Positions 1-1,413 of a stretch of 19,162 bases of DNA are shown here, piece after piece. The notes under the pieces are model-generated. The model was not told where the DNA came from. It searched no databases and saw only the letters and a program-made list of their open reading frames with translations. The DNA lies in NCBI GenBank assembly GCA_038214755.1, contig JBBQRQ010000098.1, positions 1 through 19,162 on the forward strand. The letters are read 5' to 3'. The DNA is from Verrucomicrobiota bacterium (lineage in GTDB: Bacteria; Verrucomicrobiota; Verrucomicrobiia; Limisphaerales; CANJXF01). Position 1 is the stretch's first letter. Each line of letters opens with the position of its first letter. The position numbers were made by a program, and so were the translations under genes.

Positions 1-42
1 CCCTCTCCCCCGAGGAGCAACGGTGTTCAAAAGCAAAGGAAA

Positions 43-1002
43 TTAAGCGGGTTGGATTTTGGTTTTTTGGCAATGGAGGGCGTGTTCTTTGAGGAGGCGA
101 TTCATTTGGAGGAGGAGTTTGCGCATGACCGCAGTGAGGGCGACCTTGGCCGGTTTGCCGGACGCGCGCAGATGCGCATAAAATTTACCCAGGGTGGTTT
201 GCTTCATCCGGGCCAATCCCACGGCGCTCATGTAGAGAGCGCGTCGCACCGCCGCACGACCGCCGCCAATATGGCGCTGGCCTTCCCAAGGACCGCTCTG
301 CCTGACCCACGGGGCCAGTCCCGCCAAGGCAGCGGCCTCCTGGCGGTTGAGCTGGCCCAGTTCCGGCAGGTGGCTTAACACGCTTAAGGCCGTGACGGTT
401 CCCACTGCCTCCAGCGTGGTGAGTTGCTGGACTTGCTCCTGAATGTAGGGCGCGCGATCCAGCGCCTTTTCACATTCTTTTTCCACCTCGGTCAATTGTT
501 TTTCCAAGTGGGCCACCAGCTTTTTTTGTTGCCGCGCCACGAAGGCGGGAACGCCGTGCTCCACCACTTGGCGGGCCCGGCTCAGATGTTCTTTGAGGTG
601 GTCGCGCCATTGCACCAGAGCCCGCAGTTCGACCCGGGCCGGCTCGCTCGGAGGCGTGGGCTCAGGGCGCAGAGCCACGCCGTAGGCGGTGAGAACCTGC
701 GCATCGAGCGGATCATTTTTAGCGCGTTGACCCTGAGCCAGGGCGAAGTGGCGGACCAGGGCGGGGTTGAGCACACTCACGGCCCGACCGGCGGCGTGGA
801 GCGCGGCGACGACACCTTTTTCATAGCCACCAGTCGCTTCGCAGACGATCTGCAGGCCGGGGAGGGCGCGGATCTTTTTGAGGAGATCGGCATAGCCTTT
901 GGGATTATTGTCCAGGACGTGGTGGACGTTTTGGAGGTGGAGTTGGAGGGTGGCTTTGGCAATATCCAACCCGGCATAGACGGTGGTGTTTTTTTCGTTC
1001 AT
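43..1002 (-). CDS. IS110-family DEDD transposase / bridge recombinase (319 aa)
   Basis: RuvC-like DEDD motifs GLDIAK, VCEATGGY and AKNDPLDA. C-terminal Tnp domain with AALAGLAPWVRQSG (catalytic Ser position) and GKPAKVALTAVMRKLL. ATG at 1002 (MNEKNTTVYAGLD) is preferred over the ORF-track start at 1044. Confidence 0.96.
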   Translation of the reverse strand: MNEKNTTVYAGLDIAKATLQLHLQNVHHVLDNNPKGYADLLKKIRALPGLQIVCEATGGYEKGVVAALHAAGRAVSVLNPALVRHFALAQGQRAKNDPLDAQVLTAYGVALRPEPTPPSEPARVELRALVQWRDHLKEHLSRARQVVEHGVPAFVARQQKKLVAHLEKQLTEVEKECEKALDRAPYIQEQVQQLTTLEAVGTVTALSVLSHLPELGQLNRQEAAALAGLAPWVRQSGPWEGQRHIGGGRAAVRRALYMSAVGLARMKQTTLGKFYAHLRASGKPAKVALTAVMRKLLLQMNRLLKEHALHCQKTKIQPA

Positions 1003-1009
1003 TTTATTA

Positions 1010-1220
1010 ATATTGTTCGATCTCTGACTTGCACATTCGAGCACGACGCGCCTGGTGGCGTGACGGCTCCATCAACGGTTCGAGTGCGGACAAGAAGGCC
1101 CGAGCGGCTCTGGCTCCTCGACAAACGTGGAAACGTTTCAGAGGGCAACGAGCGCGCCCGCGCCGCCGCCGTCCCCCCGGCCGGGGGGACGGCGGCCCCA
1201 TCTTCCCGTTCGGCGGAAAG
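1010..1220 (-). ncRNA. Predicted bridge RNA of the IS110 element (5' hairpins, target-binding loop, donor-binding loop); ends approximate
   Basis: Minus strand contains guide-like segments TTGCCCTCT (1148-1140) and CGAGGAG (1120-1114) around the stem AAACGT-TTCC-ACGTTT, and ACCGTTG (1079-1073) and TGTGCAAG (1035-1028) around a second stem. These match the reconstructed target and donor junctions. Confidence 0.85.
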
Positions 1221-1378
1221 CCAAACAAGAAAGATGAAAACAAACATACAAGAGGGAACCGGCAATCGACATTTCTTGGAAGTTCGGAAGCTCGTTGTGT
1301 CATCCCCGCGTTTTGGTTATTCGCAGCGGAAGACAGACAAAGACCCAGGTATCGACATTAACAGAACGCGGCGAAGAT

Positions 1379-1413
1379 TCTCCCTCTCCTCGGAGGAGAG
1401 GGGCGGGGTGAGG
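1379..1413 (+). repeat. REP-like palindrome (CCCTCTCCT-CGG-AGGAGAGGG followed by GCGGGGTGAGG); inverted partner of the copy interrupted by the IS110
   Basis: 9-bp hairpin at 1382-1402. Its reverse complement CCCTCTCCTCCGAGGAGAGGG differs by 1 nt from the reconstructed pre-insertion site CCCTCTCCCCCGAGGAGAGGG (1-17 joined to 1253-1256). Confidence 0.8.

Follow-up and report, generated by a model that had tools for sequence, protein, structure and literature searches.

An IS110-group element in a verrucomicrobial genome with a predicted bridge RNA and target guides that covary with insertion-site flanks

Organization of the element

The 19,162-nt contig JBBQRQ010000098.1 of a Verrucomicrobiota bacterium (assembly GCA_038214755.1), termed the window here, was analysed for an IS110-group insertion element and the bridge RNA predicted in its left end. 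Bridge RNA and bridge recombinase have been described for IS621 of E. coli (Durrant et al., 2024, PMC11208160; Hiraizumi et al., 2024, PMC11208158). An earlier note on this DNA had proposed that four guide segments for donor and target are encoded upstream of the recombinase gene. The window opens within a repeat and then directly enters the mobile element, which is read on the minus strand from high to low positions (Table 1).

The boundaries of the element were set from other copies and from empty sites within the same genome. The CT core is present at both junctions and in the empty sites (...CCCT-CT-CCTCG), and the target core was CT in 70 of 71 related loci. The non-coding left end comprises 248 nt (1250-1003) and the right end 25 nt (42-18). 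A long non-coding left end 5' of the recombinase gene combined with a short right end is the arrangement of the IS110 group and not of the IS1111 group, as the two groups are defined in PMC11208160. All sequence-level features of an IS110-group bridge element that could be tested were found.

Table 1. Features of the element and its junctions in the window
Feature	Position	Strand	Remarks
Whole IS110-group element	16..1252	minus	one CT core copy per junction (1252-1251, 17-16); 1,233 bp + one core = 1,235 bp
Left junction	...GGTTCCCT-CT(1252-1251)-TGTATG...	minus	read from window sequence
Right junction	...ACACCGTTG(26-18)-CT(17-16)-CCTCGGGGGAGAGGG	minus	ends at contig start
Target left half GTTCCCT	1253..1259	minus	read in window and from empty sites
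Target right half CCTCGGGGGAGAGGG	1..15	minus	loop + right arm of repeated hairpin; cut by contig start
Recombinase coding sequence, 319 residues	43..1002	minus	ATG 1002-1000, stop 45-43; open reading frame uninterrupted
5' hairpin 1 (predicted)	1197..1238	minus	minimum free energy (MFE) fold; consensus fold and covariation, 40 sequences
5' hairpin 2 (predicted), GC-rich 14-bp stem	1165..1196	minus	MFE fold; compensatory changes in up to 19 of 40 sequences per pair
Predicted bridge RNA core (target- and donor-binding loop modules)	1009..1163	minus	match of covariance model R1, 138.1 bits
Predicted target-binding module	1101..1160	minus	outer stem 1160-1150 / 1110-1101; inner hairpin 1138-1123
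Left target guide (LTG) region UU-GCCCU-CU	1140..1148	minus	1145-1140 covary; 1146 weakly; 1148-1147 constant
Right target guide (RTG) CGAGG-AG	1114..1120	minus	complementary to CT-CCTCG (17-11)
Putative target-loop handshake guide CC	1112..1113	minus	C1113 complementary to donor position 7, G18
Predicted donor-binding module	1022..1084	minus	closing stem CUC 1084-1082 / GAG 1024-1022; inner hairpin 1069-1039
Left donor guide (LDG) ACCGUUG + AU at core positions	1071..1079	minus	7 nt (1079-1073) identical to right-end 24-18
Right donor guide (RDG) AU-[GU]-G-CAAG	1028..1036	minus	pairs with CTTGTAT (1252-1246)
Left donor ACCGTTG, last 7 bp of right end before core	18..24	minus	ACCGTTG in 80 of 81 loci
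Right donor CTTGTAT, core + first 5 bp of left end	1246..1252	minus	CTTGTAT in 71 of 73 loci
Candidate -35 hexamer TTGCTT	31..36	minus	right end; functional only in circular right-end/left-end junction
Candidate -10 hexamer TATGTT	1243..1248	minus	left end; 17 nt from -35 once ends join

The recombinase and its relatives

Analysis of the recombinase sequence with Pfam predicted two domains, DEDD_Tnp_IS110 (PF01548; 64.1 bits against a cut-off of 29, E = 1.7e-17) and Transposase_20 (PF02371; 47.2 bits against a cut-off of 21.3, E = 3e-12), which are the N-terminal DEDD RuvC-like and the C-terminal Tnp domain of the IS110 family. A sequence search of the Protein Data Bank (PDB) returned the ISCro4 transposase (9t56; E = 1.5e-26), the best-scoring solved relative, with aligned catalytic motifs and compared here by its protein alone, and IS621 (8wt6; E = 2.1e-25). 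The HMMER alignment with IS621 (E = 2e-25) extends across residues 9-299. In this alignment the catalytic residues D13, E55, D97, D100 and S236-G237 face D11, E60, D102, D105 and S241-G242 of IS621 (the chain numbering of 8wt6 is shifted by two residues relative to the IS621 residue numbers), whose roles are described in PMC11208158. Judged by its sequence, the recombinase is a member of the IS110 family.

Related loci of the recombinase were collected from species genomes (16) and from metagenome contigs (80), giving 96 loci. Twelve of the 16 genome loci lie in assemblies labelled Verrucomicrobiota, Pedosphaera, Verrucomicrobiia/-ae or subdivision 3, and the remaining ones in Phycisphaerales, Binatia and a bin labelled Klebsiella. 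The labels of these twelve loci suggest a host from the Planctomycetes-Verrucomicrobia-Chlamydiae (PVC) group for the element. Two loci of one assembly named 'MAG: Klebsiella pneumoniae' (L018 and L026) carry the verrucomicrobial type of element together with GGGAGAGGG-type hairpins, and the label of this bin looks doubtful.

Secondary structure of the predicted bridge RNA

The MFE fold of 1252-1003 reached -126 kcal/mol (z = -6.3), and none of 200 shuffled sequences was as stable. The fold gives two 5' hairpins, the outer stem, in which CGGGCG-c-GCUC pairs with GAGC-CGCUCG, and the inner hairpin AAACGU-UUCC-ACGUUU. Outer stem and inner hairpin had been described in the earlier note; all coordinates quoted there were correct on the minus strand, including TTGCCCTCT at 1148-1140 and CGAGGAG at 1120-1114.

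A consensus structure was calculated with RNAalifold from 58 distinct core sequences (alignment A1). It consists of the outer stem and the inner hairpin round internal loop 1, followed by a short invariant closing stem and a variable hairpin round internal loop 2. In the 58 sequences 95.5% of the paired cells could form a pair, compared with 30-44% when the partners were slid by 1-3 columns, and both sides had changed in 15 of 28 pairs; none of 500 shuffles reached any of these measures. Changes on both sides were found in 7 of the 12 pairs of helix 1 of the target-binding module and in 4 of the 8 pairs of the inner hairpin of the donor module, whose closing stem is invariant. The 5' hairpins, aligned from 40 sequences, showed such changes in 19 of 30 pairs. 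The helices contain many G-U and U-G pairs (for example GU:33/GC:18 and UG:35), in agreement with an RNA that is read in the same direction as the recombinase gene. Two further RNAalifold pairs linking LDG and RDG (columns 100-148 and 101-147) were dropped, being invariant and within the guides.

The covariance model R1 was built from alignment A1. It gave a single match in the window, which is also its sole match in the genome. R1 matched 90 of 97 sources. In six of these a contig end truncates the 5' side, and the match in L107 is weak (28 bits); in the seven sources without a match the upstream DNA is absent or the gene is partial. The published layout, a 5' stem-loop and after it a pair of stem-loops with internal loops, was found, and the clade studied here has two 5' hairpins. 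Both of these hairpins are missing in L017:1343-1494 and L076:1045-1194, which are a single 50,558-bp contig contained in two collections. There the left junction lies only about 13 nt ahead of the target-loop stem, and the guides match the flanks at 9/9 positions on the left and 5/5 on the right, a hint that targeting can do without the 5' hairpins.

Target guides and insertion-site flanks

The guides were compared with the flanks of all related loci in a model-based alignment (A2), flanks being taken at the nearest valid junction. A sequence inside hairpin 1, CTTGTTTGG, resembles the left junction; it is not the real junction and was excluded from the flank counts. The left junctions of L025, L102 and L106 were not located, and these loci entered the RTG counts where the right end was found and stand outside the LTG counts.

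On the right side, the five non-core positions of the RTG were complementary to the flank at 5/5 positions in 72 of 79 loci, at 4/5 in six and at three or fewer in one (the loci short of a full match are L051, L056, L067, L069, L095, L100 and L103). The alignment contains 13 distinct RTG 5-mers, and for 13 of 13 the commonest flank was the predicted one. When flanks were shuffled among loci, 242 of the 395 positions matched on average and never more than 273, compared with 387 observed; none of 10,000 permutations reached the observed value. When each guide was counted once, the match was complete (65 of 65 positions), whereas shuffles averaged 32 and none of 10,000 came up to the observed value. 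The covariation of guides and flanks in homologues, which the earlier note had proposed as a check, was thus obtained for the target loop.

On the left side, the identity of LTG and flank in 73 loci was.34,.25,.47,.88,.82,.93,.93,.99 and.93 for positions -9 to -1. Positions -6 to -3 matched in 82-93% of the loci, a result that none of 10,000 permutations reached; two or fewer of these four positions matched in six loci (L016, L028, L039, L041, L079 and L107). The nine-nucleotide guide proposed earlier stood in part: 1145-1140 covary with the flanks, but the UU at 1148-1147 is constant and matches in 34% and 25% of the loci. In the LTG of this clade the two U's are a constant linker, position -7 is at best weakly read, and the programmable part comprises about 4-5 nt plus the core.

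In the window itself, UU-GCCCU-CU faces GT-TCCCT-CT. The LTG matches its flank in sense orientation at 6/7 positions, and the RTG CGAGGAG is the exact reverse complement of CTCCTCG (7/7), as the earlier note had stated. Position -7 matches in only 47% of the loci, so that G1146 opposite T is typical of the clade and no defect. The RTG of the window (CCTCG) is rare in the clade (2 of 79 loci) and fits the repeat of its host exactly. The probability of two exact 7-mers arising by chance in a 250-nt leader was estimated arithmetically as (244/16384)^2, about 2e-4. Between a chance match and a guide, the covariation of guides with flanks in the homologues is decisive.

A relative with 54% identity is present in five identical copies on the complete chromosome OY760937.1 (L021-L024 and L028). 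These copies sit in a different repeat, ...GTAGCGCAG(A/G)(C/T)(T/A)TCC(A/T)(G/A)(T/C)CT followed by GCCGT... after the junction. Their right guide is perfect in 5 of 5 copies and their left guide has one or two mismatches that vary by site, which illustrates tolerance on the left side.

Donor guides and handshake bases

The identity of ACCGTTG in the second loop with the last seven nucleotides of the right end, claimed in the earlier note, holds in the window. In the clade the LDG reads ACCGUUG in 74 of 81 loci, and it matches the right end at 7/7 positions in 73 of the 81 and at 6/7 in the other eight. At its core positions 64 of 81 loci have AT. In the RDG of 90 sequences the bases A, U and CAAG show little or no variation, and the two middle bases vary (G/U/A/C and U/A/C, respectively). 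For this guide the earlier note had placed TGTGCAAG (1035-1028) opposite CTTGTATG (1252-1245). The positions were right, but the contiguous pairing with three G-T wobbles fits less well than a discontiguous scheme like that of IS621, in which the RDG of the window would be read as A1036-U1035, unpaired G1034 and U1033, G1032 opposite T1248, and C1031-G1028. Single changes at position 5 of right donor and RDG still pair, namely CTTGCAT with ...GCAAG (G:C) in L019 and CTTGTAT with ...ACAAG (A:T) in L020. Since the donor hardly varies, the reading of the donor loop is based on identity and on homology to IS621 and not on covariation.

In the most distant relatives (L025, L102 and L106, 45-51% identity) the RDG ends in ...UAAG instead of ...CAAG, which predicts a right donor starting with CTTA.

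The concept of handshake guides was introduced in PMC11208158. In the target loop, the putative handshake pair C1113:G18 is C:G in 79 of 79 loci, with both sides invariant. Covariation of the second handshake base and of the LDG core base with the RDG bulge was also considered, and inspection gave no consistent pattern.

Copies in the host genome and the target repeat

In the 175 contigs of the same genome, four further right ends (in C109, C81, C30 and C14) and two further left ends (in C33 and C8) were found. They are 98.6-100% identical to the ends in the window and all lie at contig ends, so that the genome contains five right and three left ends when the window is included. Several near-identical ends at contig ends indicate that the element is multicopy and breaks the assembly. 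The right flanks all read CTCCTCGG(G/A)GGAGA(G/T)GG, then (CC/TT)(G/A)GGGTGAGG..., the left flanks end in TCCCT, and all flanks lie within the same hairpin repeat. Three paralogues of the left flank of the window run on without the element. The sequence of such empty sites, ...GTTCCCTCTCCTCGGGGGAGAGGG..., is present in C153 and C1, C153 reading ...CTGTTCCCTCTCCTCGGGGGAGAGGG..., and the target GTTCCCT-CT-CCTCG that had been reconstructed in the earlier note was thereby found empty at paralogous sites.

The insertion site corresponds to the left arm and loop of the hairpin repeat. The 11-mer CCCTCTCCTCG has 133 exact copies in the genome, compared with about 2.4 expected arithmetically for a random 11-mer (10.2 Mb, both strands). 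T precedes 120 of these copies and G precedes three, and the full hairpin is present at 115. The natural target is (T)CCCT-CT-CCTCG, with more than 100 copies in the genome.

The consensus of the repeat is (T)TCCCTCTCC-TCGG-(G/A)GGAGAGGG, then (CC/TT)(G/A)GGGTGAGG(G/T)CGAGC. An unoccupied perfect target lies in the window at 1382-1402 (plus strand), about 130 bp from the left end of the element and in the opposite orientation. Assignment of the repeat to the Rfam family whalefall-1 (RF01762) was considered and rejected: 86 matches were obtained at E up to 0.01, the best with 31.1 bits and none above the cut-off of 37, and the same search gave sub-threshold matches in 2 of 14 control genomes. 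The repeat resembles whalefall-1 and is not a member. In C14, about 1.2-2.8 kb from one end (1285-2711), at least five copies follow each other at a spacing of about 255-260 nt, and pairs of copies about 250 nt apart were seen in C1, C4, C9, C60 and C108. The hairpin repeat is apparently part of a longer unit that is arranged in tandem.

Candidate circle-junction promoter and proposed cycle

According to Durrant et al. (PMC11208160), a sigma-70-type promoter is restored across the core once excision has joined the ends, and the RNA starts there. Among 66 loci with both ends, the hexamers at the corresponding offsets were mostly TTGNNN (TTGCTT in 21) and TATNTN (TATGTT in 39). In the integrated copy the -35 position is occupied by TGTCGA, and a promoter and terminator scan of 950-1450 of this copy returned 0 of each. 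The conserved candidate hexamers would favour expression from the circular form.

By analogy, the cycle of the element would proceed as follows. Excision would join the right and left ends into a circle, which would bring the -35-like TTGCTT to 17 nt from the -10-like TATGTT. Transcription would begin near 1236 and give a product of about 220 nt whose end lies just ahead of the recombinase start codon. In the donor-binding loop, ACCGUUG and AU..GCAAG would pair with the joined ends of the element, and a recombinase tetramer (DEDD and Ser236) would swap strands at the common CT core. That the circle junction drives transcription, that the RNA is bound, that strands are exchanged and that the guides can be reprogrammed is inferred from IS621, as is activity of the element itself.

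Comparison with known systems

The element resembles IS621 (PMC11208160, PMC11208158) in its domain architecture and catalytic residues, in the predicted RNA encoded in the long left end, in the CT core and in the use of a repeated sequence as target. The layout named in the earlier note agrees with that of IS621 in the places of the four segments (LTG, RTG, LDG and RDG), in the arrangement of the loops and in strandedness. The right donor CTTGTAT is identical to that of IS621, and the donor end CT-TGTAT named in the earlier note was confirmed in Supplementary Table 1 of PMC11208160. Moreover, the RDG scheme AU-NN-GCAAG corresponds to A157-U158, flipped-out U159/U160, G161:dT12 and C162-G165 in IS621 (PMC11208158), and the geometry of the candidate junction promoter, with a 17-nt spacing over the core, to TTGCAG-17-TATTAT (PMC11208160).

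Differences concern the 5' part of the RNA and the guides. The element has two 5' hairpins whereas IS621 has one stem-loop, and its predicted RNA has about 220 nt compared with 177 nt. The covarying part of the LTG comprises 4-5 nt plus the core instead of 7 plus the core, and the RTG 5 nt plus the core instead of 2 plus the core; longer RTGs occur in some orthologues (PMC11208160). The LDG of the element mismatches the first core base, which is matched by C130 in IS621, and the left donor is ACCGTTG instead of ACAGTAT.

Insertion into repeats is also described for the IS110-family elements ISPpu9 and ISPpu10 of Pseudomonas putida, which use repetitive extragenic palindromic or conserved intergenic repeats (PMC12288879; bioRxiv 10.64898/2026.03.19.712850). 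The likeness is one of the published descriptions, and host phylum and repeat differ from those of the present element. The IS1111 group with its seekRNA shares the recombinase family and the RNA-guided principle (PMC11208160), but there it is the left end that is short and the right end that is long.

In the work of Durrant et al. (PMC11208160), RNAs of this kind were predicted by the thousands and 5,511 target pairs were analysed, and Supplementary Table 1 contains 7 Verrucomicrobia proteins after dereplication at 60%. A search of this table with a 13-residue string of the recombinase gave no match, and a 20-nt string of the donor loop was absent from the searched parts of the six supplementary files of the same paper, with cells covered up to 400 characters.

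Evaluation of the assignment

The anatomy of the element, the family-wide covariation of its helices, the covariation of guides and targets, the insertion sites and the empty sites are all visible in the sequences. Taken together, they make it very probable that 16-1252 is an intact IS110-group element with a bridge RNA that most likely works as IS621 does; this mechanism is supported by strong comparative evidence and by homology to a solved system.

Several observations weigh against this assignment. A scan of 1-1500 against Rfam 15 with E up to 10 gave no bridge-RNA family and only weak, chance-level matches to proV, BTH_s1 and whalefall-1. The junction hexamers match the promoter consensus weakly, at 3/6 positions (-35) and 4/6 positions (-10). 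At its first core position the LDG has A (A1072 in the window) and not C in 64 of 81 loci. The donor ends are nearly invariant in the clade, so that the LDG is seen to be identical to the right end and the RDG to follow the IS621 scheme, and the ends vary too little for covariation. Only 41 of 73 loci have a donor-loop handshake base that can pair with position 7 of the target. Finally, the homologous loci share descent, so that the shuffle controls overstate their independence and the table of 13 guides is the conservative count.

Some further observations, also unfavourable, would be explained if the family uses a bridge RNA and the copies in this genome are immobile relics that no longer transpose. 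A single complete copy is assembled in the genome, the others being contig-end fragments; RNA and circle are predictions from sequence; G1146 mismatches the T at position -7 in 3 of 3 left flanks of the own genome and at 120 of 133 genomic sites; and U1027, the handshake base of the donor loop, faces T1253 of the target, with which it can form no pair. We nevertheless regard relics as unlikely. The open reading frame is uninterrupted with all catalytic residues kept, at least five right and three left ends with 98.6-100% identity point to recent spread, the rare RTG is exact for the repeat of this host, and the mismatch at -7 is shared by much of the clade.

Another objection is that the left end acts as a cis-acting leader or as a DNA end recognized by protein, in which case the resemblance of segments and flanks would reflect recognition at the DNA level and involve no RNA guide. 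The invariance of the donor-side segments is as expected of protein-binding sites, and the RNA is known here as a prediction from sequence. However, the helices are kept by compensatory changes and contain many G-U pairs, a strand-specific and RNA-like pattern; a fixed protein-DNA code leaves unexplained that 13 RTGs track 13 different flanks; and the homologous RNA of IS621 has been solved in complex with its DNAs (PMC11208158). This explanation is therefore very improbable. Even less credit can be given to a coincidence in a GC-rich, low-complexity leader. The target is indeed C/T-rich (CCCTCTCCTCG), and the genome contains CCCTCT 1,188 times and CTCCTCG 979 times, but the segments lie at exactly those loop positions that covary with the flanks in 79 and 73 homologous loci, and the region matches the covariance model with 138 bits. 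Coincidence is effectively refuted.

Significance for the family

This kind of RNA-guided recombinase is already well described, and the element is a further orthologue that leaves the concept itself unchanged. Under the assignment as a bridge element, the 248 nt upstream of a gene annotated as 'IS110 family transposase' become a readable RNA gene with the defined donor ACCGTTG-CT-TGTAT and the natural target (T)CCCT-CT-CCTCG. The breaks of the draft genome at hairpin repeats are explained, and the repeat family is recognized as a landing pad. A phylum that is sparse in the published tree gains one well-documented orthologue, together with about 90 relatives in which guides can be set beside their flanks, and these loci provide natural data on which guide positions matter.

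It is conceivable, though on balance we lean slightly against it, that this mostly verrucomicrobial clade represents a distinct architectural variant of the bridge system. Its traits may include the two conserved 5' hairpins, a target code shifted to the right, with about 4-5 nt in the left and 5 nt in the right guide, and an LDG that does not read the first core base. They may also include an RTG that has been naturally rewritten at least 13 times, following the loop-proximal bases of the hairpin repeats of the hosts. Should the differences be functional, the clade would supply a pair of recombinase and RNA that is orthogonal by nature, as well as a ready-made evolutionary record of guide reprogramming.

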